Shown piece after piece: positions 9,168 through 45,959 of a stretch of DNA of 64,000 nucleotides (its first letter is position 1; every line of letters begins with the position of its first letter). The stretch comes from Pseudomonadota bacterium. GTDB taxonomy: Bacteria > Pseudomonadota > Gammaproteobacteria > JBCCGL01. Location of the stretch: NCBI GenBank assembly GCA_039029275.1, contig JBCCGL010000010.1, positions 61 to 64,060 on the forward strand, read 5' to 3'. The notes beneath the pieces were generated by a model, which was not told the origin of the DNA, ran no database searches, and saw only the letters and a program-made list of their open reading frames with translations. The position numbers and the translations under genes are program-made.

Positions 9168-9223
9168 GAATGGCTCCCGATTAATAATTCGGTAAACAAA
9201 TGATAGAAGATGACAACCCAGAC

Positions 9224-15854: not shown

Positions 15855-16883
15855 TCATTTTGATTCACTAAATCCGCTGGAGTAATGTATTTCACCGTTG
15901 TTATCCACGATTACGGCTTCAAACCCTGCTGTGTTGTCGATCAGTTCGAGACCATCCGTAAGCCCTAACACGAAAACGCCTGTCGCCAGTCCGTCTGTGA
16001 GCGTTGCATCGGGCCCGATCACAGTTGCGCTGCGCATCCTGCGCGCCGAGTCACCAGTATTCGGATCCAGAATATGGTGGTAGCGAACGCCATCCTCGAC
16101 AAAAAAGCGCTGATAGTCACCCGAGGTTGAAACAGCCTCATTTGCTACTGGCAGAATCGCGGCTACAGCGTCATTCTGGCGCGGGTCCTGCACGCCAATG
16201 GTCCATGGGCGACCGTTGTGGTCACCAATAAAACGCGAATCCCCTCCAGCGCTGATTTGCGCAAACCGCACCCCGGCTGCACGCCAAAGCGCGGCGACAC
16301 GCTCCACCGCGAAACCCTTGCCAAGCCCGCCAAATCCGACGCGCACCCCGTCTGCACTGTATGCGACGGTCTTGTTTGCCGAATCCAGAACCACGCGGCG
16401 AAAGTCAATCAGGTCTCCCAATTCGACCAGCTCAACATTGTCAGGACGTTGCGATGCGCGAAAATCATATCGGTAGCCCGCACTCAGAAATGTGACATCG
16501 AATGCGCCCTGCGTCTGCTTGAACAACTGCGCGGCCTGTTCGAACAACAGGAACATTTCCTCGTCAACTTTTACGGGACCGCGCGCCGCGTTTTGATTGA
16601 CGTAGGCAAGCGGATTGTCCTCGCGATAGGCACTATAGGTCTTCTCGATTCGCTTGAACTCGCGCATCGCATCAGCGAATAATCGCGTTGAATCAAACTC
16701 AGGCTCATCCCACAGCTTGAGGACGATATCGGTGGTCATTGCCGTATCGCGATGTTCGCGCCAGTCGGCGGATGCTGTCTGGATGATCATGATAATCGCA
16801 AAAAAACACACACCGACAAGGTGAAGCACGCGCGGTGTCGCATTCCGTACGTCCAGCTGTGTTAATGGCGTGATCGGATTCAT
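15855..16883 (-). CDS. apbE: FAD:protein FMN transferase (ApbE family)
   Basis: 342 aa, N-terminal TM/signal, ApbE motifs 'GGIGKGFAVERV' and 'ATVIGPDATLTDGLATGVFVLG'. Confidence 0.85.
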   Translation of the reverse strand: MNPITPLTQLDVRNATPRVLHLVGVCFFAIIMIIQTASADWREHRDTAMTTDIVLKLWDEPEFDSTRLFADAMREFKRIEKTYSAYREDNPLAYVNQNAARGPVKVDEEMFLLFEQAAQLFKQTQGAFDVTFLSAGYRYDFRASQRPDNVELVELGDLIDFRRVVLDSANKTVAYSADGVRVGFGGLGKGFAVERVAALWRAAGVRFAQISAGGDSRFIGDHNGRPWTIGVQDPRQNDAVAAILPVANEAVSTSGDYQRFFVEDGVRYHHILDPNTGDSARRMRSATVIGPDATLTDGLATGVFVLGLTDGLELIDNTAGFEAVIVDNNGEIHYSSGFSESK

Positions 16884-19349: not shown

Positions 19350-19408
19350 TCGTATCTTGCGTTTTTCTACGTTGCCAATTCGTGGTTGTTCAATACAAGA
19401 TCGTTTCG

Positions 19409-30508: not shown

Positions 30509-30766
30509 ATGAGCAAACGTAACACCGCCGCAGCCGCGGCACTTGCAAGTCTGGTTGCTGTTGGCATGAGCACTGTCGCGACCAACGCAGCAGCAGCCGA
30601 GATGGAAAAATGCTACGGCGTTGTTAAAGCAGGCAATAATGACTGCCAGACTGCAACAAGCGCATGCGCAGGCACCTCAACCGCCGACGGCCAGAAAGAC
30701 GCGTGGTTGCTGGTACCCAAAGGGATGTGTGCACGCCTGGTTGGCGGTAACACCGAAGCAGGTTAA
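30509..30766 (+). CDS. bufA: DUF2282 bufferin-type RiPP precursor peptide (Sec signal + 4-Cys core)
   Basis: 85 aa, signal peptide, core 'EKCYGVVKAGNNDCQTATSACAG...KGMCARLVGG' with 4 Cys. Stop overlaps bufB start (TAATGATG). Confidence 0.8.
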   Translation: MSKRNTAAAAALASLVAVGMSTVATNAAAAEMEKCYGVVKAGNNDCQTATSACAGTSTADGQKDAWLLVPKGMCARLVGGNTEAG

Positions 30767-31641
30767 TGATGCAAAGCGGCTCATCAGCCACGTTTGTTTC
30801 GACGCCAATCCCGGCTGTTGCCGGGATTGGACTTCGCGGGCCGCACTATCAAGCGATTGTCGATCAAAAACCAGACGTAGGGTGGCTCGAGGCGCACACG
30901 GAAAATTACTTTGGTGACGGCGGCGCACCTTTGTTTTATCTCGAAAAATGTCGAGAGAATTATCCCTTGAGCTTTCACGGCGTCGGCCTGTCTCTGGGAA
31001 GCGTTGACCCGATAAATCTCGACCATCTAGCTAAGACCAAATCGTTGATCCAGCGTTTCCAACCCGGCTTGATTTCGGAGCACCTGAGCTGGGGCTCGAT
31101 TGATGGCGAGCATTTCAACGACCTTTTACCCATGCCTTACACTGAGGAGGCACTCGCACATTTTTGCGAGCGCGTCGATCAAACGCAGGAATTTTTGGGT
31201 TGCCAAATGCTGGTCGAAAACCCATCCAGCTATCTCAGCTTTTCGCACTCGACGATCCCGGAATGGGAATTTTTCGTTGAGATAGCCAAGCGTACCGGAT
31301 GCAGACTGGTAGTTGACGTAAACAATATTTTCGTCAGCGCGCAAAACCATAACTTTGATGCGGATGCCTACATCGATTTCATACCGCCGGATTTGGTCGG
31401 CGAAATCCATCTCGCTGGGCACGCCATCAACACCCACGACACAGTTAAGATTTTAATCGACGACCATGGCTCGGTCGTAAGCGATTCAGTCTGGACACTA
31501 TTTGTACGCGCAATTGGTCGCTTCGGTGCGAAACCGTCGCTGGTCGAGTGGGACAGCAATATACCGCCACTTGAAGAATTACTCGCAGAAGCACAAACCG
31601 CGCAAGGGATTCTGGATGAGTGTCGTGCCCTCGTTGCCTGA
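30766..31641 (+). CDS. bufB: DUF692/MNIO (multinuclear non-haem iron oxidase) peptide-modifying enzyme
   Basis: 291 aa. 'AVAGIGLRGPHY...WLEAHTENYF...SFHGVGLSLGS' matches the UPF0276/DUF692 TIM-barrel family. Confidence 0.85.
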   Translation: MMQSGSSATFVSTPIPAVAGIGLRGPHYQAIVDQKPDVGWLEAHTENYFGDGGAPLFYLEKCRENYPLSFHGVGLSLGSVDPINLDHLAKTKSLIQRFQPGLISEHLSWGSIDGEHFNDLLPMPYTEEALAHFCERVDQTQEFLGCQMLVENPSSYLSFSHSTIPEWEFFVEIAKRTGCRLVVDVNNIFVSAQNHNFDADAYIDFIPPDLVGEIHLAGHAINTHDTVKILIDDHGSVVSDSVWTLFVRAIGRFGAKPSLVEWDSNIPPLEELLAEAQTAQGILDECRALVA

Positions 31642-32407
31642 ACTGCAGCGTGCATTCTCTAATGACTTGCATGGTGAATCGGCATCGCAAACGGAACGGA
31701 TGATCAAGCCGGGAAAGTTTTCCTCCGAGCGACTCATTCAGGTTTACCGCAATAACTTTCAAATCAGTTTGACGACAGCGCTGCGTGATATTTACCCGAC
31801 CATTGACACGCTGGTTGGTGAAGGTTTTTTTAATTATTTGGCCAACGCGTATATTTCTGCACACCCCTCAAGGCACGGAAACCTGCATGAATTCGGGTCA
31901 TCACTGACCGAATTTTTGGGTCGTTTCGAGGCGGCTTCCAGCCTCCCCTACTTATCCGACGTCGCATCTGTCGACTGGGCAAGTCACCGCGCTTTCCATG
32001 CCGCGGACACGCAAGCAGTGTCACAGAAAAAGCTAGCCCAGATAGCGCCAACAGATTATCCCGCACTTAAATTCAAGTTAAGCGAATCCACGACCCTGAT
32101 TTCATCCGAATTCCCCACATTTTCAATCTGGCAGTTTGCGCAACGCGATAATCCAAATACCGAACCACCCGCAGTAGATGGCGGCGGGGAGTGCGTGCTT
32201 GTGCATCGTCCGCGTCTTGAATCCGAGGTCTTTCAAATCACGGGTACTGAATACCGCCTACTATTTGAATTGAAAAATGAACAAACGCTCGGTGCCGCAG
32301 TCGAACGGGCGGTCACCGAAGAAAGCAATAACATGGCTTTTGATTTGAACAACTCTCTGCAACGTTTTTTCGCGGCAGGCGTTGTTTCAGATGTCTGGCT
32401 AGATTGA
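31616..32407 (+). CDS. bufC: DUF2063 family MNIO partner protein
   Basis: Begins 'MSVVPSLPELQRAFSNDL...'. N-terminal DUF2063-like region. Overlaps the bufB 3' end by 26 nt. Start chosen at the internal ATG. Confidence 0.7.
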   Translation: MSVVPSLPELQRAFSNDLHGESASQTERMIKPGKFSSERLIQVYRNNFQISLTTALRDIYPTIDTLVGEGFFNYLANAYISAHPSRHGNLHEFGSSLTEFLGRFEAASSLPYLSDVASVDWASHRAFHAADTQAVSQKKLAQIAPTDYPALKFKLSESTTLISSEFPTFSIWQFAQRDNPNTEPPAVDGGGECVLVHRPRLESEVFQITGTEYRLLFELKNEQTLGAAVERAVTEESNNMAFDLNNSLQRFFAAGVVSDVWLD

Positions 32408-32495
32408 TTCGGGACCTGGCCAGGGAACGCGAGAAATAATCTGGCAACGTATCACTCCAACACCAAATGAAGACAACGAGAATGAGGAAAAAACA

Positions 32496-32948
32496 ATGGC
32501 GATAGTCACGCTCCTGAGAAATGTACTGAAGCCTTCCATCGGATGGTTGGCGCTGGCAACTCCGCTGATCGATCTGGTTCTGCGTCTGTATGTAGCGAAC
32601 ATATTCTGGAAATCGGGACAAACCAAAATTGCGAATATGGATCAGACAGTACAACTGTTTGAATACGTATATCAGGTACCGGTTTTGCCACCTGCGTTTG
32701 CGGCTTATCTTGCGACGTACGCGGAATTGATTTTCCCTATACTGCTGGTTTTAGGCCTCGCTACACGTTTCGCTGCGCTGTCGCTGACAATCCTGAATAT
32801 CGTTGCGGTTATTTCATTTCCAGACTTGAACGATGCCGGACTGCAACAACACATCGTCTGGGGAATCATGCTGCTTGTCACCTTGTTGCACGGTCCAGGC
32901 AAGCTCGCAGTGGACCACTGGATTCACAAGAAATACTGGGACGAGTAG
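32496..32948 (+). CDS. DoxX family membrane protein
   Basis: 150 aa, 4 TM helices, 'LRLYVANIFWKSG' DoxX signature. Confidence 0.8.
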   Translation: MAIVTLLRNVLKPSIGWLALATPLIDLVLRLYVANIFWKSGQTKIANMDQTVQLFEYVYQVPVLPPAFAAYLATYAELIFPILLVLGLATRFAALSLTILNIVAVISFPDLNDAGLQQHIVWGIMLLVTLLHGPGKLAVDHWIHKKYWDE

Positions 32949-32990: not shown

Positions 32991-33743
32991 TCAAACACCC
33001 TGAAGGCGTTCAGGAAAATCGCTAATCACGCATGCGACGCCCCACTCGAGCAATTCCTCAGCGCGATCTCGTTTATTCACCGTATACACCAGGACTGGAT
33101 AACCTTGCGCGTGTATTGCATCGACCTGGTGCTTTTGTAGCGGTTCGTCTTCAGCGTGAAGTGATACGGCACCAAATTCCTGCAATTTTCGTTGCCAGTT
33201 GTCAGGAACGTCTTCTACTAACCAGCCGCGCGAAAACTCGCCTGCCACTTCAGCGATTCTCTGCATTACTGATTCGTTAAAGCTCGACAACAACAGCGGC
33301 ATATTTCGCGGCCAGTGTTTTCGCAAAATATCAATGGTGTGGTCGACCGTTTCTTTTTCATTTCCGGTCTGCGATTTAATTTCCACGTTCACTCCCATGC
33401 CAAACTCGTCAAGCAGAGGAATAAGCTCACGAAACAAGGGAATTTTTTCTCCCAGGAACTGACCGGAAAAATGTGAGCCGGCGTCGAGCGTTTCAAGCAC
33501 CGAATAGTGGGTTGTTCGCAGCGCACCGCTCCCATTGGTGCACCGATCAAGCGTGTAGTCATGAAACACCACAATCTCGCCACTGCCGGCCAGGTTCACA
33601 TCAAGTTCGACAAATCTGACACCTAATTCCGCCGCACGCATGAATGACGCGATGGTATTTTCCGGTGCGGTACCTTTCGCACCGCGATGACCAGCCACAC
33701 GCGGCAGAGCCGAAAAATCAAAAGCCGGGAATTCGTTTAGCAA
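32991..33743 (-). CDS. glycerophosphodiester phosphodiesterase family protein
   Basis: 'HRGAKGTAPENT...VELDVNL...VVFHD' GDPD catalytic motifs. 250 aa. Confidence 0.85.
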   Translation of the reverse strand: MLNEFPAFDFSALPRVAGHRGAKGTAPENTIASFMRAAELGVRFVELDVNLAGSGEIVVFHDYTLDRCTNGSGALRTTHYSVLETLDAGSHFSGQFLGEKIPLFRELIPLLDEFGMGVNVEIKSQTGNEKETVDHTIDILRKHWPRNMPLLLSSFNESVMQRIAEVAGEFSRGWLVEDVPDNWQRKLQEFGAVSLHAEDEPLQKHQVDAIHAQGYPVLVYTVNKRDRAEELLEWGVACVISDFPERLQGV

Positions 33744-33758
33744 AACAGGAGATAAAAA

Positions 33759-34988
33759 CTAATACCAGAACGATATGAACGCGCGTAATACAGTGGCGTT
33801 GAAATCGTAAAGTGGTTCGCTGCCGGTTTCCGCCGGGCTGCTCGCATTCGTTGTTCCACGAATGTCTCGAAAATCGTCATACTGAAAATCAATAAAGTCG
33901 ATGTGCACGTCGACAGCACCGCGGTCGGCAAACCCCCAGCCGCTCTCGAGCAGGTCATAACTAAATCCGAATCCAATTGTATTTGAACTAAATGTGCTCA
34001 ACTCCTTGTCTCGCGCGAGAAAATTTTGCGCGTCCTGAAAAGGGAACAAATCGCTGTAGAAATCTGCTTTGGTTTGCTGATAGTGACGAAAACGAAAGTC
34101 CAAAACCCAGCCGCCATCCAATGGCACGAGGTAGCCAACGTCCACAGACTGTCCGGTTATATCCCAATCATCGTTAAAAAATCGATAGCCCAATTTTATC
34201 GATGCCCGGTGTTCCAGATAATAGAGTGATTGAACTCCCAACGCGTTACTGGTTCGCGTGTTTGGATAAGCTTCTTCCTGAAAGCTGTAACCGCGGGGAA
34301 CACTTGGATCGACAAACCGTACCTGTCGATAGGGATTATTCAAAAAGCCTTCGTCGGTTATAGATTCCAAATTGGCGTTAACGATCCAGTTCTTGGTCAA
34401 AATTTGCGAAAATCCTAAGCGAAAATTCTGCCGCTCAACTTCGCCAACCTTGGTGTCCAGTCTCGACACCTCATCATCGCCCTGCGCGTACCCAAGCGTG
34501 AGCGTGCTGAGTGCACCAAAAAACTCCTGCGTTATGCTGAAGTGTAAAGTGTTGGCGCTGAAGTCACTTTCTTCGCTATTGGTAAAACCACCACTTAACG
34601 TTGTGCGGTCATCGAGATAGTCAAATGAAACTGATTGCTCGGTGCGTTCTTCAGTATATGAACTCGCGGTTGTCACAACGTCTATCGACGCGCTGGTCAC
34701 CGAGTCAACGTAGTAATTGCCGCTGACTGAAACGTTGGATCCGAGTTGTTTACGCACCAGCACCGACGGGCCAGCGATAGTGACGCCGCCGCCATCATAG
34801 CTGTGATAGAGAACGTCGGCACGATCTTCGGGCAGAATCGCTGCAAATGCAGCAGATGTGGTCAGCGCAAACGCAAAGATCACGCTGAGTTGAATCACGC
34901 GTCTGAGAAAAGCGGCCACGCTCCGTAAAACCGGTTGCGCGCCCACACGTGCAAGGCGGTCATCAGCAAAGCGAGAGAGGTTACGCAA
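33759..34988 (-). CDS. DUF3570-like outer-membrane beta-barrel protein
   Basis: Signal peptide, 409 aa, amphipathic beta-strands, C-terminal 'RAFISFWY' aromatic terminus. Immediately downstream of a DUF4266 gene. Confidence 0.6.
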   Translation of the reverse strand: MRNLSRFADDRLARVGAQPVLRSVAAFLRRVIQLSVIFAFALTTSAAFAAILPEDRADVLYHSYDGGGVTIAGPSVLVRKQLGSNVSVSGNYYVDSVTSASIDVVTTASSYTEERTEQSVSFDYLDDRTTLSGGFTNSEESDFSANTLHFSITQEFFGALSTLTLGYAQGDDEVSRLDTKVGEVERQNFRLGFSQILTKNWIVNANLESITDEGFLNNPYRQVRFVDPSVPRGYSFQEEAYPNTRTSNALGVQSLYYLEHRASIKLGYRFFNDDWDITGQSVDVGYLVPLDGGWVLDFRFRHYQQTKADFYSDLFPFQDAQNFLARDKELSTFSSNTIGFGFSYDLLESGWGFADRGAVDVHIDFIDFQYDDFRDIRGTTNASSPAETGSEPLYDFNATVLRAFISFWY

Positions 34989-35048
34989 GATAGATGACCG
35001 TGATTAGTCGATTTTTAACACTGCAATAGCGCGTGAGCAAGTTTGTCG

Positions 35049-35267
35049 CTAATTGCACCCGCACCCACCGCCGGTTCCACCCTCAGCGCCACGTGCACCT
35101 TCGCGCGATTGATAAACGTGGTGCATATAGGAATCAGAAGCCGCAGCCCGAGAAAACTGCATGATCGGGTCAGAGAGGTTTGCGCGCTCATAAGGCGCAA
35201 CCCACGGCTCGAGCGAGCTGCACGCTCCGAGCGACAAAAACGATATTGCAAAAAGTAAGCGATGCAT
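35049..35267 (-). CDS. DUF4266 family small lipoprotein
   Basis: 72 aa, lipobox 'LSLGACSS', C-terminal 'GGTGGGCGCN' hallmark of DUF4266. Confidence 0.7.
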   Translation of the reverse strand: MHRLLFAISFLSLGACSSLEPWVAPYERANLSDPIMQFSRAAASDSYMHHVYQSREGARGAEGGTGGGCGCN

Positions 35268-35269
35268 AA

Positions 35270-35782
35270 CTATTCGCGCAGAAGTTTGCGCACTTGTTCC
35301 TCATATTTCACTTCGTAGCCTGGTTTGTATCCTTTATGCAGGTAACGCATATTGCCGTCACGATCGACCAGAATTGTCGTCGGCATTGCCTGTACCTGGT
35401 ACAGCTGACTCACCAGGTTTTGATCGTCGAATAAGATTGGAAACGTCACCGGTGTCGATTTCAGCATATTTTTCGCAGGCTTTGTATCCTGTTCAACGTT
35501 TACACCAAGAACCGTAAACCCCAGCGGTTTAAACTGTTGATACATTGCGTCCAATAGCGGCATTTCCTGTCGGCATGGACCGCACCACGATGCCCAGAAA
35601 TTGATCATGACAACCTGTCCACGCTGCTCCCCCAGGCGCAGGTTGATACCGTCATTACTCCGCAAACTAAAATCGGGAGACGGGCTATTCAGCTCAATAG
35701 CGTAAGCCGTTGACGTTAAACAAAGCACCAAAGCAATCAGGCCAAGGCACTTGCGGAAGTAATATGTGTAAACTTTGTGCAT
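35270..35782 (-). CDS. TlpA-like periplasmic thiol:disulfide oxidoreductase
   Basis: 'FWASWCGPCRQEMP' thioredoxin CxxC. Signal peptide from the internal Met (MHKVYTYYFRKCLGLIALVL). Start trimmed from 35878. Confidence 0.8.
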   Translation of the reverse strand: MHKVYTYYFRKCLGLIALVLCLTSTAYAIELNSPSPDFSLRSNDGINLRLGEQRGQVVMINFWASWCGPCRQEMPLLDAMYQQFKPLGFTVLGVNVEQDTKPAKNMLKSTPVTFPILFDDQNLVSQLYQVQAMPTTILVDRDGNMRYLHKGYKPGYEVKYEEQVRKLLRE

Positions 35783-35795
35783 GGTGTCTTCTCTT

Positions 35796-36449
35796 TTAAA
35801 AAAACAGCGACGCGCCGATCGAAAGTTCCAAATTGTGGGCCGTTTTACTCTCGCCCAGTAAATCGAGGTCAAATACATGATCTCGAAAATCGATGTGGAA
35901 GGCGAAAGAATCGTTAATCAAAAACCGATATCCGCTGCCGAAATTAAATGTAAACAGACTGTCACCGGCAAACTCGGTGCTTCCCGCCCCAGCGATTACG
36001 TAGACTGCTGTATTGAACGCATAGTCATCACCGATAAACGTTTCACCCAACAGGTTGTAACCGACAGAAATATTATAGAACGTGTAATCGCGTTGATCAT
36101 CGGTGAGGAGTTGAATGTCCCCGTTTAACCGCTCAAAGGTTGTTTCGTTCGCCGTGGACGTGCCGACCGTGCCTTCGACAAACAGATTTTCGGATAAATG
36201 ATATGCAATCTTTCCACCTGCTACGCTGCTAACGCCGAAATCTTCGATACTGATGAAGCCAGCGAATGCAGTCACCTCAAGATTTTCTGTATCGATTGCC
36301 GCCTCGTCGATTGTGCGTCTTTCAACACTCTGCTCGACCACCTGCCCGAGACTGTCCTCAGTATCAACTGAGCCATCGAGATCATGGTTATCAGCAAGCG
36401 CCGGGGCGGATAAGCCAAATACCAGAATGAACGCCAAATAAATACGCAT
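35796..36449 (-). CDS. small outer-membrane beta-barrel protein
   Basis: Signal peptide 'MRIYLAFILVFGLSAPALA', OmpA-like beta-barrel pattern, C-terminal 'IGASLFF'. Start overlaps the upstream stop (ATGA). Confidence 0.6.
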   Translation of the reverse strand: MRIYLAFILVFGLSAPALADNHDLDGSVDTEDSLGQVVEQSVERRTIDEAAIDTENLEVTAFAGFISIEDFGVSSVAGGKIAYHLSENLFVEGTVGTSTANETTFERLNGDIQLLTDDQRDYTFYNISVGYNLLGETFIGDDYAFNTAVYVIAGAGSTEFAGDSLFTFNFGSGYRFLINDSFAFHIDFRDHVFDLDLLGESKTAHNLELSIGASLFF

Positions 36450-37201
36450 TAGAAAAATACCGACACGCCGAGTTTCCACTGTTTAACCTTGTCGTTGTCG
36501 TCTCGACTCGTGATGATCGTCATTTGATCGTACTCAAAGCGCAACACAAATCGTTTACCAAGAAATCGTCTAACCCCGATACCCGCGCGCAAAAACTGGT
36601 CACTGCGATCTTCCGATGCGACGAGTGTTGCATCGGGCTCGGTTTGAATCACACCAGAACCCAGCGAGAAGAAAGGCGAGTAAGTCCATTCGGGAAACGG
36701 TTGATTGACGCCGTTAAAACTAAAAAAAATGCTGTTTGAAACGTCACCTAAAGCATGCGAAAGCGAAGCTTCCGCTGAGAGATTGGGGGTAAAGTGATAC
36801 GCGGCGTAGGTGGAGATTACAGCCGCACCGCCAAAATCGCCTCCCATCACACCGCCTTCCCAACGACGCTGATTGAAATCATCCTGTGTGAGTTCTGCTA
36901 GCTGCACGTCGCTGCCGTCGAGGTTGAGCGTGCGTGCAATTTGCTCCCTGGATACCCACCCTTCAACACCTCGCGCGGTTCGAATTTTGAACCAGTCATG
37001 TCGTCGCAAAAGAAGTTCGATCTCTTCACCTCGATCAACCACATGGAAAATCGGGAATGCACTGCCCGCACCGGTGTGCATCTCGACGAACGGATCGGCG
37101 ACCTGCACGCGCTGAAAGGATTCTTCTTCGGCGCCCACTGCTTGCGACAAAACCAGTAGCGCGCACAGCATGCCGCGCTGCAAACAACGCCAGATTCTCA
37201 C
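36449..37201 (-). CDS. SH3b-domain + beta-barrel envelope protein
   Basis: Signal peptide. SH3-like 'VEGWVSREQIARTL'. C-terminal barrel ending 'WKLGVSVFF'. Confidence 0.55.
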   Translation of the reverse strand: MRIWRCLQRGMLCALLVLSQAVGAEEESFQRVQVADPFVEMHTGAGSAFPIFHVVDRGEEIELLLRRHDWFKIRTARGVEGWVSREQIARTLNLDGSDVQLAELTQDDFNQRRWEGGVMGGDFGGAAVISTYAAYHFTPNLSAEASLSHALGDVSNSIFFSFNGVNQPFPEWTYSPFFSLGSGVIQTEPDATLVASEDRSDQFLRAGIGVRRFLGKRFVLRFEYDQMTIITSRDDNDKVKQWKLGVSVFF

Positions 37202-37385
37202 TGCTGTTGAGCCTGTTCATGGTTCATGGCTTATGAATAATGGCGACAGACAATTTCACTCTCTCGGGCCAGACAAATTTGAGCGCACTCAATACCTTAC
37301 ATTCTAGCGTGGTTTTGAGAAATCATTACCACTCATCACGTCGCTTCGTCTGCTGAATTGCGCGTTCTTCCGCTTTTACGCTCGA

Positions 37386-40007
37386 TTAATTGGTCGGCGC
37401 ATCAAACGGATTGTTGTAGTACTGCGCCCCTATATCGAGCCACTCGGCGATCAGGCGCAGTTCTTCTGGGTCCAATCGGCCGTCGTGCGTACCGCCGGGA
37501 TCGAACACAGAAAAGAAGTTACTTTGCGCGGCACCGGCCCCGGACATGGAAGGTCCAGGGGTCGCCGTCACGGGCTGAAGGATTGGGTTGCCGTCATCGT
37601 CCAAACCAACTTCGATAATCAAATCGATGAGTTCGGTGGTGTCGCCGTCACCATCGCTGTCGTCGACATCGATCACCTGCTGGATATCGGCAAAAAACAG
37701 TTCGCGGTACGCTTTAAAACGATCTTCGTTGTCGTTCGGGCCATCATCGGTCAGATCTAACTGCGCGTCCGGCACGCGAGGGGCGTTCGCGTTGGCGACA
37801 TCGACAATCGTGTGGCATGCGGTGCAGGTGTCGTCCGGATCCGGGCGAGTCAAATCCCACATCGGGTGAATATGCGTTTCGTAATGAATCACGACGCGAC
37901 AACGGTTGCTCCACTCGGGCTCGCAGTTAAGCGCAGGCGACGGTGTGGTTAATCCGGCGTAGCGTAAAAAGAGATCGGCATCTGGCGTGCGCACGAGAGG
38001 ATCGGTCCAAACGTCTGTGTATTCGATGTCTGCGGATGGCGTTGTCGCTGCGCAATCGACAGTGCAATCTGCGAACCCACTGTGACGCGCGCGGGTTTGC
38101 GCCATCGTTTCGCCTGCATCGGTCCACAGGCGTGCGACGGTGTTCGGAAACGGCTGACCGGTCAGCTGCGATCCCTGATTGATCGATACAAACTCGGCAC
38201 CCATTCGACCATGGCTTGCTTCGCTATCCGCAGTATGGCAACCATTGCAGGTGCGTGTTTCACCCGGTCGAAGTTGAATCCAATTCTGGTGTCGACCACC
38301 AATTCTTCTTCCGTTGGCATCCAGAACGCTCACCGTAAAAGAGACGTCTGCTGGCACTTTTACGCGAACAGATCCATCCGGCTCGATCGGCGCGTAGCCG
38401 ACTATCTCTCGCATAAGCTGATTAATCTGCGGGCCGAATGCACTGTTGTTGAAATCCTGCACGTCGTCATCCGGAATTGACACCGCTTTGGTTAAGCGTA
38501 AAAACCGCGCGGGACGCTCGGCTGCCAGCGTCTGCGCGGGGTCGGCTAAAACACCGATTCCGTTTGTAGATGTATCGACACCGTCAAAATCGTAGACACT
38601 GCGGATATCCAGAATCGCGACCCCTTCATCGGCTAGTGTGGCATCAAGATCAATACCGGGCAGTTTGTCAATTAAAGCCGTGGGCCGCGTGCGTGGGTGC
38701 GCGGCTACCACGTCGGTGTAAACAATGTTTTCCTCGGGCAACACAACCGGCAACTGCGTGTCCGATCCCACATCGCGAATCCAAACGCCATACAACGGAT
38801 TGGCTTCGACTACATCCTCGATTGCAAGATTGTCAGTTGTGCAAGCGACAATGACTTCGTCAACCAGCAAGCGGCACGGCGACCAACTCGTCATCATTCG
38901 GTCAGTGCCATCCCACAGCGGGTAAACACTGCTGAAGCGACCACCAGTGGACGGCTCATCATCAGTGCGCACGTTAACGCCCGCCGCATTTGTGTGAGCG
39001 CTTTGCACAACAGTGCCGATTCCTATTTGCTCAAATTCGTCAGTGTAGATTGCAGCGTCGATCAAGATTGGCGAGGCATCGTAACGATCATTCGTGAACG
39101 GTCGAATCAAACTTAAAACCTGCCCGCTCGGCGCTTCGCGCGCATCGGTAAATTGAACAGTCTCACCGTCGGTGCCGATCTCGTGGCTGTGGCGCCCATA
39201 AAACAGGGACAACTCGGTGCCATCCGGGCGAATTGTATAAAGGTGCATTGCGTTACGGGCACCCGCGGCGTCCCAACGCGTAAACAAAATGTACCCGGAA
39301 GATAAAACGGAGGGATCCAAGTCGTGACTTTGATTAAATGTGATTTGCCGAATTTCGGAACCGTCTTCGTTCATCACGTGCAAGGCGAAGGCCTCTTCAC
39401 GACGCTCTTCGTCCAGCGTTGTGAACTGGGGTTTGTTTTCATCCAGCAAAATTGCTCGGGCACGCTCCTGCCGCGTTGACGCAAAAACTATTCGACCATC
39501 AGGCAAATAATGAGGCGCGACATCCTGCCCTTCTTCCGCCACGATGTCGCTGGTAATTATCCTGCGCAGCGTTGCGCTGGAAATTTCGTATTCCCAAATA
39601 TTCCAAGTGGGTTGTTCATCTTCGTCGGCATTTTCAATTTCCGGCGCGCGCATTGCGAAAACAATTTTTTCGCCATCGTACGAAGCTTCAATGTCCTTTA
39701 CATCGTAAAGTTCGCCCGCTTCAAATACGCCAATGGTAATTGCACGCTCGTCTGCACTCGGTGATGCACGATCCCGAACGTACAATACGGCGCCGGGAAA
39801 AAAGTCGGCTGGGCTTCGGATGTCAGACGTTTCGCGTTCACCGTCGTCATCAAGCGGCAACGGACGTTTAACGTAAGCGAGTGGAAAATCCTGCAAGACC
39901 GGGTCGGGTTCCTGGCCACTACCGCCAATACTGCCACCACCGCACGCTTGTAAAAACATGACGGCAACAAGTGACAAAATTGTTATAAAACGCCGCAAAA
40001 AAATCAT
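37386..40007 (-). CDS. lipoprotein with TolB-like beta-propeller and C-terminal di-haem (2x CxxCH) domain
   Basis: Lipobox 'FLQACGGGS'. PD40-like propeller repeats (YLPDGRIVFAS, LYTIRPDGTE). Haem motifs 'TCNGCHT' and 'TCTACHT' near the C-terminus. 873 aa. Confidence 0.7.
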   Translation of the reverse strand: MIFLRRFITILSLVAVMFLQACGGGSIGGSGQEPDPVLQDFPLAYVKRPLPLDDDGERETSDIRSPADFFPGAVLYVRDRASPSADERAITIGVFEAGELYDVKDIEASYDGEKIVFAMRAPEIENADEDEQPTWNIWEYEISSATLRRIITSDIVAEEGQDVAPHYLPDGRIVFASTRQERARAILLDENKPQFTTLDEERREEAFALHVMNEDGSEIRQITFNQSHDLDPSVLSSGYILFTRWDAAGARNAMHLYTIRPDGTELSLFYGRHSHEIGTDGETVQFTDAREAPSGQVLSLIRPFTNDRYDASPILIDAAIYTDEFEQIGIGTVVQSAHTNAAGVNVRTDDEPSTGGRFSSVYPLWDGTDRMMTSWSPCRLLVDEVIVACTTDNLAIEDVVEANPLYGVWIRDVGSDTQLPVVLPEENIVYTDVVAAHPRTRPTALIDKLPGIDLDATLADEGVAILDIRSVYDFDGVDTSTNGIGVLADPAQTLAAERPARFLRLTKAVSIPDDDVQDFNNSAFGPQINQLMREIVGYAPIEPDGSVRVKVPADVSFTVSVLDANGRRIGGRHQNWIQLRPGETRTCNGCHTADSEASHGRMGAEFVSINQGSQLTGQPFPNTVARLWTDAGETMAQTRARHSGFADCTVDCAATTPSADIEYTDVWTDPLVRTPDADLFLRYAGLTTPSPALNCEPEWSNRCRVVIHYETHIHPMWDLTRPDPDDTCTACHTIVDVANANAPRVPDAQLDLTDDGPNDNEDRFKAYRELFFADIQQVIDVDDSDGDGDTTELIDLIIEVGLDDDGNPILQPVTATPGPSMSGAGAAQSNFFSVFDPGGTHDGRLDPEELRLIAEWLDIGAQYYNNPFDAPTN

Positions 40008-40458: not shown

Positions 40459-41712
40459 ATGTTGTTGAGAACTGAACTGAGTAAGTTCGCGATAGTGATC
40501 GCAACAGCATTCACTCTTATCATTACAAGCGTCACCGCTTCCGCCGGCTCGCGCGAAAAGGCTAAGCGCATTCATGATCGCCTGGCTGGCGTTCCTGCCA
40601 GTCAAGCAGTCCTTGATGACATGGTTAGCGACATCGACGGCATTGGCGATGGCAGCGGGACATTTGACGGAACACCCGCTGGAGCAGCCTACACGGCGAT
40701 GCAAAACAGCGCTTTTTACAACGTCACGCTGAAAAATTTTGCGATGCCCTGGACCAACCGTGAGTTCACAGTATTCGCCCCACTCAACGATTACGTCGCG
40801 ACCTTCATAGGCATGGTGCGCGATGACGTACCGATGAACCAGGCGCTCTCGGCGGACATTCTTTACATCGGCAGTGGCGGAAGTATCCCGGCCTATTCCA
40901 ACAGCGACAACGCGCATTACGAGGCGTTGGACGATCAAGGCGTTAACCTGCGTGACAACCTTATCCAGACAACGCAGTCTGCCGTTACCGGATTAGATTC
41001 ATCTGCCACCGCGGGTTTGATGACCACGCGCGCGGCGGCTAAATCGTTTTTTATCGCGGGTACAAACCGCGCGATGTTCCGCTTTACGATGCTTAATCAT
41101 CTGTGTCACGACATGGAACAGGTTGCCGACATTACCCGAGCGCCGGATCGCATCCGTCAGGATGTTTCGCGCAGTCCCGGGGGTGACAGCCGTATATTCC
41201 TGAACAACTGTATCGGTTGCCACAGCGGCATGGACGCGATGGCTCAGGCTTTTGCTTACTATGATTTCGCCTTCGACGCGGACAACGACCCAGAGGCCGA
41301 AAATGGCATCATGACCTACAACGGACCGGGCGTCGTTGACGAGGTTACCGGCACCCGCGTGCACTCCAAGTACTTTAACAATAACAGCAACTTTGACCCC
41401 GGCTTTGTCACACTTGACGATCGCTGGAGCAACTACTGGCGTGCGGGCCAGAACAAATTGCTCGGGTGGAGCGATCCATCTGAGGCAATGCGCCACGGCA
41501 ACGGCGCCAAATCGCTGGGTGAAGAACTCGCCAACAGCGAGGCATACGCGCGCTGTCAGGTTGAAAAAGTGTTTAGAGCGGTGTGTCTGCGTGATCCTGT
41601 TGACGCCGGCGACCGAGGTCAGATCGATACCATGATCGGTGACTTCATCACCAGCAATTACAACCTCAAGCAGCCGTTTGCCCAAAGTGCGCTGTTTTGC
41701 AGCGGGTCGTGA
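40459..41712 (+). CDS. secreted mono-haem (CxxCH) protein, 417 aa
   Basis: Signal peptide 'IATAFTLIITSVTASA'. Single 'NNCIGCHSGMD' haem-binding motif. No recognised enzymatic family. Confidence 0.65.
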   Translation: MLLRTELSKFAIVIATAFTLIITSVTASAGSREKAKRIHDRLAGVPASQAVLDDMVSDIDGIGDGSGTFDGTPAGAAYTAMQNSAFYNVTLKNFAMPWTNREFTVFAPLNDYVATFIGMVRDDVPMNQALSADILYIGSGGSIPAYSNSDNAHYEALDDQGVNLRDNLIQTTQSAVTGLDSSATAGLMTTRAAAKSFFIAGTNRAMFRFTMLNHLCHDMEQVADITRAPDRIRQDVSRSPGGDSRIFLNNCIGCHSGMDAMAQAFAYYDFAFDADNDPEAENGIMTYNGPGVVDEVTGTRVHSKYFNNNSNFDPGFVTLDDRWSNYWRAGQNKLLGWSDPSEAMRHGNGAKSLGEELANSEAYARCQVEKVFRAVCLRDPVDAGDRGQIDTMIGDFITSNYNLKQPFAQSALFCSGS

Positions 41713-41807
41713 TCATGCGTAGCCGGTCAAGCCAAACTATGAATGCACCCGCACCTGCGCTGCGTCAGTTGCACCGTCTCGAGCGCAACGATGCATTGCG
41801 GTCACGA

Positions 41808-44267
41808 ATGTCGTCTTTCCTTCTTTGGGCGATGATGATCGGCTTACTGCTGCTCAGTGGGTGTGGCGGTGGTGGCGGTGCTGATACCACATCCAATCCG
41901 CCTGGCGGCGGCGAGGGTGGTGGCGACTACAATGGACCCGCGCCACAAACAGCAGACGTTCAAGCCTTTCGCCTTGCACTGTGGGAAAACGTGCGAGACG
42001 AGAACCGTTGCGGTGCCTGCCACAGTGCGGTTGGCGGGCAAGACCCCATGTTTGCGCGCAGCGATGACGTCAACCTCGCTTACGCCGCTGCGATTATGCC
42101 GGTTGTTAATCGAGGTGATCCGGATGAGTCCTTGCTGGTAACCCAGGTCGCAGACGGCCACTTCTGCTGGTTGACGAGCAACGAGGCCTGCGCCGACACG
42201 ATGGAAAACTACATCGAAAACTGGATTGGTGGCAGCGGCGGTGCAGTAAATGAAATTGAATTATCAATACCCATACAAAAAGACGTTGGCGAGAGCAAAA
42301 ACTTTCCTGACGACTCGAGCGGTTTCAGCCCGATCCACACTTTGCTGACGACCTACTGCGCAGACTGCCATGTCGACAGCGTGGATCTCCCGCAACAGCC
42401 GTACTTTGCGGTAAGCGATATCGATGCGGCCTACGACGTGGTCAAAAGCAAGATCAACCTCGACACACCCGAAGATTCGCGTCTGGTCGTTCGCCTAGGA
42501 AGCGAATTCCACAACTGCTGGGATGATTGCACGGCAAACGCCGATGAAATGGAAACGGCGATTCAAACCTTTTCCGACAGTATTGTCCCGACTGAAGTTG
42601 ATCCGGATCTCGTGATAAGTAAAGCGCTGTTGTTGGGCGATGGAATCGTCGCCAGCAGCGGCGGACGCTTCGAAACCAACGTGATCGCGCTGTACGAGTT
42701 TAAAACCGGAACCGGATCCACGGCCTTCGACACCAGCGGCGTTGAGCCCGCAATTAATATGACGTTCAGTGGCGACGTCGAGTGGGTCGGCGGTTATGGT
42801 ATCCGCGTGACCGAAGGCGGCAAGGCACAAGGTTTGACCGACACCAGCCAGAAACTGCGCGATCGAATCACCCTCACTGGTGAATACAGTATTGAGGCAT
42901 GGGTCGTGCCCGGTAACGTGGTGCAGGAAGATGCCAACATCATCAGCTATTCCGGCTCCGATACCAGTCGTAACTTTACGCTGGGTCAAACGATGTACAA
43001 CTACGACTTCTTCCATCGCAGTAGCACCACGGGTGCCAACGGCGACCCCGCACACTCCACTAACGATGACGACGAGGACTTACAGGCAACCCTGCAACAC
43101 GTGGTTGTCACGTACGATCCGGCTAACGGCCGCAGGATTTACGTCAACGGCGTGTTCACAGATGACATCGACGAAACCGAGGGCGGTAATCTGTCCGACT
43201 GGGCCAGTAACTTTGCACTGGTTTTCGGGAACGAAACATCGGGCAATCGCGAGTGGGAAGGCACCTTGCGTTTGGTCGCGATTCACGAGCGCGCCCTGAC
43301 TGAAGAGCAGATTCTCACCAACTTCGAAGTCGGCGTCGGTCAGAAGTTTTACCTGCTGTTCAACGTCAGCGATCACGTCGGTCTGCCCGATGCCTATGTG
43401 GTGTTTGCGGTCAGTCAGTTCGATTCCTACAGCTACCTGTTTGAGGAGCCGTTCTTTATCAGTCTCGACGAAACGGCGGTGCCTAACAGTGTTCCGATGA
43501 TGGGTATGCGCATCGGCATCAACGGGCGCGAGGCCACGATCGGTCAGGCCTATCGAACGCTCGACACAACGCTGGAAGCCGCCGACTACTCAGCCGCAAG
43601 TGGATTAAGTCTGTCGCCGACGGGAACGATCATCGGCCTGGAAAAAGGCCCAGAAAGTGACGAATTCTTCCTCACTTTTGAACTGCTCGGCAGCAGCTCT
43701 AATGTCGTGGTAGAAGCAGATCCGATTGCACCACCCACTCCACCGGACGGTGCGCCTGTCTCTGACATTGGCGTGCGCACTTTCGACGAAATCAACTACT
43801 CGATGGCCGAACTGACCGGCGTCAGCATCACCAATTCCAACGTGTTAGAGACCTATGAAACTGTTAAGCAGCAGCTGCCAACGACGGAAAACGCACAAAC
43901 ATTTTTATCATCGCATCAGGTGGCAATTTCGCAGCTGGCGATCGAGTACTGCAGCGAGTTAGTGGACAACACGACCTTGCGCGACGGCTTTTTTAACGAC
44001 GGCACCGCATTTAACTTCGCCGCGCCTCCCGGCACCGCGGCTCCGCTGGGGACCAATTGGGAATTTCAAGTTGTGCTTCCGCTGGTCGATGCAGTAACGC
44101 AATCCACCGATTTACAGCCAATGGCTGTTGGTCCGACTCGAACCGACATGCGCGATGAACTTCTCGCCCTGATTACGCGTCTTGGCGGTAGCGGAACCGC
44201 GACCAATAGTATCGCTAAAGGCACCTGTGCCGCGGCTCTGGGCAGTGCCGCCCTGTTAGTCCAATAA
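41808..44267 (+). CDS. lipoprotein with two CxxCH haem motifs and a LamG (concanavalin-A-like) domain
   Basis: Lipobox 'LLLSGCGGGG'. 'RCGACHS' and 'YCADCHV'. LamG-like core 'YSIEAWVVP...HVVVTYDPANGRRIYVNGV...LVFGNE'. Start placed at the Met preceding the lipobox; the ORF could start at 41697. Confidence 0.65.
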   Translation: MSSFLLWAMMIGLLLLSGCGGGGGADTTSNPPGGGEGGGDYNGPAPQTADVQAFRLALWENVRDENRCGACHSAVGGQDPMFARSDDVNLAYAAAIMPVVNRGDPDESLLVTQVADGHFCWLTSNEACADTMENYIENWIGGSGGAVNEIELSIPIQKDVGESKNFPDDSSGFSPIHTLLTTYCADCHVDSVDLPQQPYFAVSDIDAAYDVVKSKINLDTPEDSRLVVRLGSEFHNCWDDCTANADEMETAIQTFSDSIVPTEVDPDLVISKALLLGDGIVASSGGRFETNVIALYEFKTGTGSTAFDTSGVEPAINMTFSGDVEWVGGYGIRVTEGGKAQGLTDTSQKLRDRITLTGEYSIEAWVVPGNVVQEDANIISYSGSDTSRNFTLGQTMYNYDFFHRSSTTGANGDPAHSTNDDDEDLQATLQHVVVTYDPANGRRIYVNGVFTDDIDETEGGNLSDWASNFALVFGNETSGNREWEGTLRLVAIHERALTEEQILTNFEVGVGQKFYLLFNVSDHVGLPDAYVVFAVSQFDSYSYLFEEPFFISLDETAVPNSVPMMGMRIGINGREATIGQAYRTLDTTLEAADYSAASGLSLSPTGTIIGLEKGPESDEFFLTFELLGSSSNVVVEADPIAPPTPPDGAPVSDIGVRTFDEINYSMAELTGVSITNSNVLETYETVKQQLPTTENAQTFLSSHQVAISQLAIEYCSELVDNTTLRDGFFNDGTAFNFAAPPGTAAPLGTNWEFQVVLPLVDAVTQSTDLQPMAVGPTRTDMRDELLALITRLGGSGTATNSIAKGTCAAALGSAALLVQ

Positions 44268-44315: not shown

Positions 44316-45959
44316 ATGAAGTACAAATCCAAAAAACCCGATTACTCCGATCCTGACGAACCGTTGCCACAACCGGATCACGAACGCCCGGTCACGCGAC
44401 GCGACTTTCTTGCTCAAGGTTTCATTGGCGGTGTCGGGACGGTGCTCGGCACCACTGCGCTCAGCATGTTTGCGAACCCTCGGGCGGCCTACTCGGCGCT
44501 ATCGCCTGATCTGGAATTGTTAAAAACAAGCTGCGGCATCGCGACCCAGGGGGCGGGTAAAATACCGTTTATCTGCATTGACCTTGCTGGCGGCGCAAGC
44601 ATGGGCGGTTCGAACGTACTCGTCGGCAGACAGGGAGGACAGATGGATTTCCTCACTACCGCCGGGTACAGCCGACTCGGGCTTCCGGGCGATATGATCC
44701 CCGGCGTTGCGGAGCCCGGTGGGGCAGGCAGCAGCGCCACTGGCACCAGCAATGGCGATCACACCGACACAACTCTGGGGCTTGGCTTTCACGCAGACAG
44801 CGCGTTTTTACGCGGTATGCTCGAGAAGATATCGATCTCACATCGGGCGTTAATTAATGGTGCAGTTATTCCTGCACGTTCGGAGAACGACACTGGCAAC
44901 AACCCACACAATCCGATGTATGGCATCAATAAATTGGGAGCCGACGGCTCGTTGCTGACATTAATTGGGTCAGAGAATTCTGTTTCTGGTGGAAATTCGA
45001 TGGCTCCGGACGCGCTGATTGATCCATCCGCGCAACCCACCAAGGTTGACCAGCCGAGCGACGTTACTGGTCTTGTCGATACCGGCAAACTGATTGGCGT
45101 GCTCGACCAATCGGACGCAGTTTCCGTGCTCGAATCGATTCAACGTGTCAGCTCGATGAAGCTTGACGCGGTTGCCGCAGAGTTCAGCGATACTGACATT
45201 CAGGATCAGATGAACTGCGGATACGTCAAAAGCGCTGACTTGGCCGATCGGTTTGGTGATCCATCCACGCTTAATCCAGAGGGTGATCCTCTGATAAACG
45301 GTACAGACGCGGTGTTTAATACGCCGATCTTTACCGCCGACGATTTCAATGACCGCGAGTTTCGCAAAACCGCATCGGTGATGAAGTTGGTGATCAACGG
45401 ATTTGCAGGCGCCGGCACGATTTCGATGGGAGGTTACGATTATCACGGGGGTGCCAGAGCACGCGGCGAGGTGCGCGATTTACGCGCCGGTCGCTGCATG
45501 GGCGCCTGTCTCGAATACGCCGCGCGTGTTAATGTGCCGTTGATGCTGTATGTCTCCAGCGACGGCTCACTTTCAAGTGACGGTACGATTGATAATACTG
45601 AAGACGGTCGCGGAAAGGGTGAATGGGTCAGCGACAATTCATCCACTGCAGCATCGTTCTTTCTGGTCTATAACCCCGCCGGGCGGCCCACATTGTTAGG
45701 CGGGACGCTTGACCAACAGGCGATGCATCAGCAGCTAGGGTATTTCAGGCCGGACGGATCGGTGGAAACGACATCGAGCCCGGCAGCAAATAACGTTAAT
45801 CTTCTGGTTAATACAGTTTTGCTCAACTACGCCGCACTGCACGGTGATCAAGCGGCGTTCACCAGTTTGTTTCCGGGCAACAGTCACGGGCTCGGCAGCA
45901 CAGCCGCCGCGCTCGATTCGATGACGGCCTTCAATCCGATAGTTACCGGAACAATTTAG
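44316..45959 (+). CDS. Tat-exported protein (DUF1501/DUF1552-like?), 547 aa
   Basis: Twin-arginine signal 'TRRDFLAQGFIGGVGTVLG'. 'KIPFICIDLAGGASMGG' resembles the metal-site region of alkaline-phosphatase-fold DUF1501 proteins. Confidence 0.6.
   Translation: MKYKSKKPDYSDPDEPLPQPDHERPVTRRDFLAQGFIGGVGTVLGTTALSMFANPRAAYSALSPDLELLKTSCGIATQGAGKIPFICIDLAGGASMGGSNVLVGRQGGQMDFLTTAGYSRLGLPGDMIPGVAEPGGAGSSATGTSNGDHTDTTLGLGFHADSAFLRGMLEKISISHRALINGAVIPARSENDTGNNPHNPMYGINKLGADGSLLTLIGSENSVSGGNSMAPDALIDPSAQPTKVDQPSDVTGLVDTGKLIGVLDQSDAVSVLESIQRVSSMKLDAVAAEFSDTDIQDQMNCGYVKSADLADRFGDPSTLNPEGDPLINGTDAVFNTPIFTADDFNDREFRKTASVMKLVINGFAGAGTISMGGYDYHGGARARGEVRDLRAGRCMGACLEYAARVNVPLMLYVSSDGSLSSDGTIDNTEDGRGKGEWVSDNSSTAASFFLVYNPAGRPTLLGGTLDQQAMHQQLGYFRPDGSVETTSSPAANNVNLLVNTVLLNYAALHGDQAAFTSLFPGNSHGLGSTAAALDSMTAFNPIVTGTI

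Follow-up and report, generated by a model that had tools for sequence, protein, structure and literature searches.

Introduction

Alongside cytochromes and thioredoxins, covalent ApbE-dependent flavinylation has been suggested to form a third major extracytoplasmic electron route, of which the DUF3570 branch is the least understood. Among DUF3570 proteins, covalent attachment of flavin by a cognate ApbE has been shown only for that of Chlorobium luteolum, which is modified at two [S/T]GA[S/T]-like sites; hundreds of gene clusters have been described that combine ApbE and DUF3570 with a thioredoxin-like protein and DUF4266, some of them also containing DsbD (Meheust et al. 2021, eLife, PMC8238504). 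The same study proposed that these clusters encode a hybrid thioredoxin/flavin electron-transfer system. Here we analyse a five-gene cluster that includes DUF3570 and DUF4266 in a 64,000-nucleotide (nt) stretch of contig JBCCGL010000010.1, a 256 kb contig from the metagenome-assembled genome of a gammaproteobacterium; this whole stretch is referred to as the window. The initial annotation of the window called the cluster conserved and functionally uncharacterised. The first description stands but the second is partly outdated, since DUF3570 is a proven ApbE substrate and the cluster type was described in 2021 (PMC8238504).

We lean, if modestly, towards the view that the five genes are the core of a gammaproteobacterial version of the ApbE-dependent DUF3570 flavoprotein system, which would act as a thiol-flavin-haem relay at the outer membrane. 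Like the published clusters, the window has a DUF3570 with two flavinylation-type sites beside a CXC-tailed DUF4266 and an extracytosolic thioredoxin-fold protein, and the genome also codes for an extracytosolic ApbE. It differs from them in that ApbE lies 17 kb away, DsbD was not found, the glycine at position -2 of the flavinylation motif is replaced by Ser or Thr, and the thioredoxin is of the Redoxin/TlpA type, not the published PF13899 type. Two further differences are six more invariant genes, encoding a protein resembling the alpha subunit of hydrazine synthase (HZS), two small barrels, a monohaem protein, a dihaem LamG-domain protein and a twin-arginine translocation (TAT) protein, and a recurrent link to a block of genes resembling the Agl/Glt core complex; neither is mentioned in the text of PMC8238504. 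As canonical clusters for comparison we used those of Vibrio aquimaris (locus L088; TlpA-DUF4266-DUF3570-ApbE-DsbD) and Fulvitalea (locus L087; Trx-ApbE-DUF4266-DUF3570). The version described here is new in its nine-gene locus, its Ser-variant motif, its lack of an adjacent ApbE or DsbD, its haem partners and its link to the Agl/Glt-like block.

Results

Five co-directional envelope genes

The minus strand at 33759-37201 holds five co-directional open reading frames (ORFs), with limits exactly as the initial annotation gave them. Bit scores of Pfam and NCBIfam hidden Markov models (HMMs) were judged against curated cut-offs, the Pfam scan of the window covering ORFs of at least 150 amino acids (aa) and all ORFs of the cluster region; all five family assignments proposed earlier hold above those cut-offs, and the Pfam check suggested for DUF3570, DUF4266 and AhpC-TSA/Redoxin gave matches to each. 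The first gene encodes an SH3b domain joined to a small outer-membrane barrel (SH3-OMP; 36449-37201, 250 aa; SH3_3 34.5 bits against a cut-off of 27, OMP_b-brl 32.8 against 28.7). It is followed by the gene for a second small outer-membrane barrel with an acidic N-terminal extension (OMP2; 35796-36449, 217 aa; TIGR04565 151 against 60), that for a periplasmic thiol-disulfide reductase resembling TlpA, ResA and DsbE (35270-35782, 170 aa; Redoxin 96.9 bits, AhpC-TSA 94.8), that for the DUF4266 lipoprotein (35049-35267, 72 aa; PF14086 81.7 against 27) and that for the DUF3570 protein (33759-34919, 386 aa; PF12094 138.3 against 25).

Three of these ORFs extend upstream of the start that we assign. 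The identical DUF3570 protein is annotated by NCBI as a DUF3570 domain-containing protein of 386 aa, which places its start at 34919 (ORF to 34988). OMP2 probably starts at ATG 36449 (ORF to 36479), and the TlpA-like gene most likely starts at ATG 35782 (ORF to 35878), which gives the 170 aa seen in its orthologues. With these starts, the stop of SH3-OMP and the start of OMP2 would overlap as TAATG, and the TlpA-like gene would begin 13 nt beyond the OMP2 stop with no overlap. A scan for promoters and terminators gave nothing beyond shuffled expectation.

The predicted DUF3570 barrel and its tandem flavinylation-type sites

DUF3570 carries two tandem D-x-x-T-x-A-S sites, eight residues apart, which read DSVTSAS-I-DVVTTAS (34662-34706, minus strand; verified by translation) and place candidate flavin acceptors at Ser78 and Ser86 in the peptide DSVTSASIDVVTTAS. 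The positions of Asp, Ala and the acceptor Ser show little or no variation among 100 close homologues. In almost all of 85 orthologous loci, however, Ser at site 1 and Thr or Ser at site 2 take the place of the canonical Gly at position -2. In alignments with distant members from Vibrio and Bacteroidota, Ala77 and Ser78 are invariant throughout, and Ser76 and Asp80 are also invariant when the window protein is set against the Bacteroidota members; the site reads DTVSGAS in Vibrio aquimaris, SSAS in Fulvitalea and DYYSSAS in Hymenobacter. When 1.84 billion representatives were scanned in full with HMMER, 3378 members of the DUF3570 family were recovered at E <= 0.001. The two-site region was readable in 87 of the top 150 members (representatives at 50% identity), and site 1 among these 87 reads SA[ST] in 53, GAS in 22, NAS in 9 and AAS in 2; the best match reads DSISGASIDVVTTAS and another reads DTISGASVDAVSGAS. 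Since Gly, Ser, Asn and Ala interchange at this position among the representatives, the window motif is a one-residue variant of the canonical sites found in close relatives.

In a six-frame scan of ORF segments of at least 100 aa across the 64 kb window, the relaxed motif was found only in DUF3570, twice, and in one antisense non-gene ORF. By this motif, DUF3570 is the sole candidate ApbE substrate in the window. A seven-residue peptide is sufficient for modification by ApbE (PMC12052999). We consider it likely, on these observations, that the DUF3570 subfamily to which the window protein belongs is flavinylated.

The structure predicted for DUF3570 is that of a 16-strand outer-membrane beta-barrel. 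A confident AlphaFold2 (AF2) model made from a 100-sequence alignment (predicted local distance difference test (pLDDT) 89.7; predicted template-modelling score (pTM) 0.83) begins with a signal helix, after which come 16 antiparallel strands, and a Foldseek search of the PDB with this model returned outer-membrane barrels only (OmpG, FadL, OprD/Occ, PelB and TonB-dependent receptors), at TM-scores of 0.4-0.48; as modelled, DUF3570 is a barrel of generic type to which no solved structure is specifically related. Its last two residues are W[FY], and Cys is lacking in 79 of 86 orthologues. Along the strand list, short turns (2-8 residues) and loops take turns, the long loops being residues 77-87 (the motif loop, between strands 3 and 4), 190-221, 283-309 and 352-369. 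All of the long loops lie on one side of the model, which the usual topology rule would put at the cell exterior. Unlike normal surface loops, however, these long loops hold the family's most conserved sequence (DEGFLNNPYR, ADFYSDLF, QNFLARDKELS), which suggests that they may fold into the lumen as a cofactor pocket.

An alternative is that the Ser-variant DUF3570 proteins have lost flavinylation and form an outer-membrane channel, plugged or gated by DUF4266, that passes a substrate or metal to or from periplasmic haem enzymes. The sole role of the TlpA-like protein would then be that of ResA, CcmG and TlpA, which is to supply reductant for maturation, here of apocytochromes c or of a Cu/Fe site. 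The canonical Gly is indeed missing from nearly all of the 85 orthologues, the modelled barrel resembles the substrate channels OmpG, FadL and OprD, and 25 of the published DUF3570 clusters include the VIT1 iron transporter (PMC8238504). We nevertheless regard this alternative as rather unlikely: the acceptor Ser, the Ala and both Asp residues are invariant within the subfamily and beyond it, which would be unexpected for a relic, Gly and Ser interchange among close relatives, and a Bacteroidota cluster with an adjacent ApbE also has SSAS at site 1.

A conserved nine-gene locus

One genome per species was scanned, and at least 586 genomes encode a relative. The top 80 of these are nearly all Gammaproteobacteria, comprising Woeseiaceae, Chromatiales, Pseudomonadales/Cellvibrionales, Kangiellaceae, Steroidobacter and symbionts of lucinids and tubeworms, and the locus is present in cultured Alteromonas, Paraglaciecola, Aliikangiella and Steroidobacter. 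Six-frame ORFs of 85 related loci (designated here by L numbers) were searched with the window proteins, and counts were made only over loci with sufficient flank. The gene order is invariant: p547 <- LamG-dihaem <- monohaem | HZS-alpha-like -> SH3-OMP -> OMP2 -> (TlpA) -> DUF4266 -> DUF3570, where p547 is the TAT protein. DUF4266 is present in 84/84 loci, OMP2 in 77/77, SH3-OMP in 67/67, the HZS-alpha-like gene in 59/59, the monohaem gene in 53/53, the LamG gene in 52/52 and p547 in 50/50, with the TlpA-like gene in 65/80. Independent gene calls with precomputed Pfam matches give the identical order.

The genes past DUF3570 vary between loci, so the conserved order reflects more than shared ancestry of the whole region, and the arrangement is far beyond chance. 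The co-conservation expected of the five genes is thus seen across genomes, and the link that the initial annotation drew to the adjacent haem-protein cluster is supported. The functional unit is larger than five genes: nine genes are invariant, and ApbE and the Agl/Glt-like block are recurrently linked to them.

The proposed thiol-disulfide pair and the small barrels

DUF4266 is conserved over its whole length. Its lipobox, LGAC, lies at 35220-35231 and its C-terminal tail, GGGCGCN, at 35052-35072 (both minus strand); this tail, which the initial annotation had called diagnostic, is recovered as G[GS]GCGCN in 84 of 86 orthologues. Most orthologues have three Cys, the lipid-anchor Cys and the CGC pair. 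The residue at +2 after the lipobox Cys is Ser. In E. coli, Ser at this position points to the outer membrane, and by this sorting rule the sequence suggests that DUF4266 is an outer-membrane lipoprotein. The envelope location and thiol-redox character assigned to the cluster at the outset both hold. CXC peptides catalyse thiol-disulfide exchange, as stated in a preprint (bioRxiv 10.64898/2026.01.27.701630). We note that the DUF4266 protein of Fulvitalea (L087:4892-5107) reads ...YREGASGASGGKSGGGCGCN, with an SGAS flavinylation-like motif just ahead of the CGC tail, a stretch that reads REGARGAEGG in the gammaproteobacterial proteins; judged from the motif, this could be a coincidence or a third flavin site.

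The TlpA-like protein has the motif WC[GAVT]PC in 69 of 69 orthologues (WCGPC in the window, 35573-35587, minus strand). Its nearest solved structures are 3GL3 (DsbE-like) and ResA, and its scores lie far under the NCBIfam equivalog or subfamily cut-offs for ResA (113 against 170), TlpA (78.8 against 230) and DsbE (60.4 against 123); by these scores it is assigned to the Redoxin/thioredoxin superfamily and to nothing narrower. It shares with ResA, CcmG (DsbE) and TlpA a thioredoxin fold, the WCxPC motif and a signal or anchor sequence but, unlike them, it is encoded beside DUF4266 and not in a ccm, res or sco context. That its nearest solved relatives are cytochrome-maturation reductants of the ResA/DsbE kind is in keeping with the non-flavin channel described above. 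The in-cluster TlpA-like gene is absent from a Pseudomonadales/Woeseiaceae subset (15 of 80 loci), and in L001, L015, L040, L064 and L067 a second TlpA paralogue lies between ApbE and p198, a gene discussed below. In the loci that lack the in-cluster gene, the reductase may be supplied in trans.

The two small barrels are distant paralogues at profile level. An hhalign comparison of the OMP2 family with the barrel family of SH3-OMP gave a probability of 91.8% (E 7.5e-7); TIGR04565 matches the SH3-OMP barrel at 35.9 bits, under its cut-off of 60.

Haem proteins and the TAT protein

The first gene of the conserved operon (37386-40007, minus strand) encodes an 873-aa HZS-alpha-like dihaem lipoprotein with the lipobox LQAC and haem-binding motifs CNGCH at residue 587 and CTACH at residue 728. 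The HZS_alpha middle domain scores 60 bits, and the protein aligns collinearly with 5C2V_A through the propeller, the middle haem domain and the C-terminus; two CxxCH motifs are present in 48 of 56 orthologues. It resembles the alpha subunit of hydrazine synthase (5C2V chain A) in its beta-propeller, its CxxCH middle domain and its C-terminal haem region. It differs in being a lipoprotein, in scoring far under the equivalog level (52.6 bits against a cut-off of 800) and in having no partner nearby, since the conserved locus shows no beta/gamma hydrazine synthase subunit; what the two share is the domain architecture only. For HZS-alpha-like proteins of bacteria other than anammox organisms, no function is known (PMC12758564). 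In relatives this gene directly abuts SH3-OMP. In the window the two are separated by a 184-nt gap (37202-37385), compared with ~4 nt in L001, L002 and L004; the gap may be an internal promoter or a local rearrangement.

Three genes on the plus strand diverge from this operon. The first encodes a 417-aa monohaem protein (40459-41712; CIGCH at residue 251), one CxxCH being present in 55 of 55 orthologues, and the second an 856-aa dihaem LamG-domain lipoprotein (41697-44267; Laminin_G_3 74.6 bits; two CxxCH), two CxxCH being present in 47 of 48 orthologues. The nine-gene locus as a whole encodes five CxxCH haem sites. Such sites need reduced cysteines, and to that extent they too would suit a TlpA-like protein that serves only cytochrome maturation, as the non-flavin channel supposes.

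The third divergent gene encodes p547 (44316-45959, 547 aa), an unannotated and highly conserved protein with a twin-arginine signal. The twin-Arg motif is present in 14 of 14 full-length orthologues, and homologues form more than 8000 clusters with 65-82% identity across orders, some sources mis-naming them GspF. No match to p547 was found in Pfam, NCBIfam or the PDB. Its AF2 model is poor (pLDDT 58.9), and a Foldseek search with this model returned nothing significant, the weak matches all being folds of the alkaline-phosphatase superfamily; this faint resemblance may serve as a lead and is not an assignment.

The divergent intergenic region contains no enriched Fur, PhoB, NsrR, OxyR, FNR or sigma-54 consensus. 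A subclade of loci (L001, L002, L006, L008, L009, L014, L015, L017 and L065) carries the element GTTCTGTGATCNCGTTAACGG, followed about 20 nt on by ATGCCCAT, in this region 140-260 nt upstream of the HZS-alpha-like gene; the element is absent from the window. The element may represent a leader or the binding site of a regulator.

ApbE and an Agl/Glt-like block

The only ApbE gene in the window (15855-16883, minus strand; PF02424 236 bits) is on the same strand as DUF3570 and 17 kb away from it, and we presume that its product is the flavinylating enzyme and acts in trans. ApbE directly follows DUF3570 in L004, L026, L039, L052, L064 and L067, where DUF3570 has the same Ser-variant motif. Co-occurrence with ApbE, which had been put forward as a check and proved the right one to make, was assessed over the 70 related loci with at least 2.5 kb of sequence past DUF3570, and it is borne out in part: ApbE adjoins DUF3570 in 8 of the 70 but is absent from the 10 kb flank in the other 62, and in the window it lies at a distance. 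That ApbE is usually not adjacent would be expected of the non-flavin channel, whereas its direct joining to the operon in several Ser-variant loci argues against such a channel. DsbD (PF02683) had no Pfam match among the scanned ORFs of the window, and a phmmer search with the full-length Vibrio DsbD found nothing in the window or the 85 related loci.

In the window ApbE (to 16883) heads a block of genes on the minus strand (6492-15684, with p198) that resembles the Agl/Glt core complex. After ApbE come p198, a 695-aa and a 964-aa tetratricopeptide repeat (TPR) protein (GltC-like and GltD-like), a 206-aa TPR lipoprotein (GltE-like), a 92-aa secreted protein (p92; 9224-9502, minus strand), ExbB (AglR-like), two ExbD (AglQS-like) and a 336-aa protein (p336; GltG-like), whose C-terminal TonB-like domain is of the AgmX/PglI (GltJ/GltG) type (NF033768, 68.5 against a cut-off of 40). 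Luciano et al. 2011 (PMC3169522) described a gammaproteobacterial core complex with the order GltG-AglS-AglQ-AglR-extra gene-GltE-GltD-GltC and took it for an ancestral unit whose function is not known. The part of the block at 6492-15094 matches Table S3 of that paper in order and sizes, with a GltG-like protein of 336 aa, two ExbD, ExbB, a small extra gene and TPR proteins of 206, 964 and 695 aa; the likeness rests on order, sizes and domain matches. The ApbE and p198 genes that head the window block are not described in PMC3169522. No flavinylation-like motif was found in p198, p695 or the other block proteins beside ApbE.

Of the 70 related loci, 15 have the Agl/Glt-like block downstream of DUF3570 at a distance of no more than 10 kb, seven of them with ApbE in between; one further locus has ApbE without the block. 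In L004 the genes from HZS-alpha-like through GltG-like form a single co-directional array, and by this comparison the window looks like an array of the L004 type split by ~17 kb of housekeeping genes. Within that 17 kb stretch we also note a Ser/Thr protein kinase fused to a cyclic-nucleotide-binding domain (18027-19436, minus strand). Recurring as it does in several distinct layouts, the linkage speaks for a functional connection between the DUF3570 locus and the block, which we put forward as a hypothesis drawn from gene order, the linkage being limited to about a fifth of loci.

It is conceivable, on the strength of this linkage, that SH3-OMP, OMP2, DUF3570 and the lipoprotein are chiefly the outer-membrane end of a core complex of ExbB, ExbD and TonB-like parts driven by the proton-motive force, with mechanical movement or secretion as the main role and the redox parts as accessories. 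The full contiguity in L004, the position of the window block on the same strand 17 kb away, the published gene order and sizes and the score of p336 all fit this idea, and the pair of paralogous small outer-membrane barrels parallels GltB/GltA. We consider it distinctly unlikely, however, given that adjacency is seen in only ~1/5 of loci, that it leaves the CGC tail, the CxxC, the flavin motifs and the five haems unexplained, and that genes of the gltA/B type are reported only in Myxococcales and Bdellovibrionales (PMC3169522).

A bufferin-type operon as a chance neighbour

On the other side of the cluster, 800 bp from its end, lies a bufferin-type operon (30509-32948, plus strand) encoding a DUF2282 precursor, an enzyme of the MbnB/TglH/ChrH family, a DUF2063 protein and DoxX. 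Between the two is a glycerophosphodiester phosphodiesterase (GDPD) gene (32991-33743, minus strand) that starts 15 nt past the DUF3570 stop; with this spacing it may be co-transcribed with DUF3570 in the window. The initial annotation placed the cluster between the bufferin operon and the haem genes and combined all three into an envelope redox/metal island of roughly 15 kb, which as an explanation would make the locus a copper- or metal-stress island. The bufferin operon is genuine and adjacent, and both are Cys-rich envelope systems. However, when the four bufferin-operon proteins and GDPD were searched for within 10 kb of DUF3570 in 85 related loci, they were found in none, so that the proposed check on bufferin co-occurrence came out negative. 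The bufferin and DUF3570 operons are moreover transcribed convergently, with the unrelated GDPD gene between them, and the region has no compositional (guanine-cytosine) break, no tRNA, no Rfam match and no mobility gene; the absence of a compositional break and a tRNA leaves the term island unsupported. The bufferin operon is a chance neighbour of the DUF3570 cluster, and a shared copper- or metal-stress role, which synteny contradicts, strikes us as very improbable. A horizontal-transfer island was also considered, and was rejected for want of a compositional break, tRNA or Rfam match.

Discussion

We favour a relay for several reasons taken together: the HMM memberships, the conservation of the flavinylation-type motif, the presence of ApbE directly after DUF3570 in Ser-variant loci, the conservation of the CGC, CxxC and haem motifs and the barrel predicted by AF2. 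Under this reading ApbE would attach FMN to Ser78 and Ser86 of unfolded DUF3570 in the periplasm, and the flavinylated barrel would then be inserted into the outer membrane. The TlpA-like reductase, recharged by a DsbD or CcdA encoded elsewhere, would reduce the CGC tail of DUF4266, which as a periplasm-facing outer-membrane lipoprotein could use this Gly-rich tail as a small thiol-disulfide shuttle. A flavin is a converter between two-electron and one-electron chemistry. The CGC dithiol would exchange two electrons with the FMN of DUF3570, and the flavins would pass electrons one at a time to the c-type haems carried by the HZS-alpha-like lipoprotein and by the divergent haem and LamG proteins, although electrons could also flow the other way. 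The two small paralogous barrels, one with an SH3b domain of the peptidoglycan type, might anchor or scaffold the assembly. The interaction of DUF4266 with the barrel and the path of the electrons are both inferred from sequence.

Several observations weigh against such a relay. In the window protein, Ser (site 1) and Thr (site 2) stand where the canonical motif has its -2 Gly, and in another ApbE substrate a change of Gly to Ala halved flavinylation without abolishing it (PMC12052999). ApbE is 17 kb off in the window, and 62 of 70 related loci lack it within the 10 kb flank; the searches for DsbD found none in the window and none in the 85 loci, and the TlpA-like gene is absent from 15 of 80. 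The thioredoxin of the window is of the Redoxin/TlpA type and not of the published PF13899 type. Finally, in the model the flavin loop would lie on the extracellular side by the usual topology rule, while the CGC tail would be periplasmic.

Porin-cytochrome conduits such as MtrCAB consist of a large outer-membrane barrel with redox-cofactor proteins and lipoproteins, a decahaem protein being inserted in the barrel. The nine-gene locus is like MtrCAB in encoding an outer-membrane barrel together with haem proteins and lipoproteins, for which electron movement across or at the outer membrane is plausible. It is unlike MtrCAB in that covalent FMN on the barrel's own loop and a Cys-Gly-Cys pair are proposed, and in that there is no sequence or specific fold relationship. 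We can go further and speculate that DUF3570 is a flavo-porin, with two covalent FMNs in its own loops, that is fed by the CGC tail, passes electrons to the haem lipoproteins and is a working partner of the ancestral Agl/Glt core complex; taken as a whole, we think this doubtful. If it is true, a flavo-porin would be a thiol- and flavin-based counterpart of porin-cytochrome conduits, and the gammaproteobacterial module would be the long-sought partner of the Agl/Glt core complex, for which a role beyond gliding bacteria has been sought since 2011.

The DUF3570 module is tied, in many Gammaproteobacteria of marine and sediment origin, to fixed partners, namely haem proteins, two small barrels and an unannotated, very highly conserved TAT protein. 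The nine-gene locus, with its links to ApbE and the Agl/Glt-like block, provides a concrete and testable list of parts, and the cultured carriers are tractable hosts. If the barrel does carry flavins in the outer membrane, it would represent a new kind of trans-envelope redox device.

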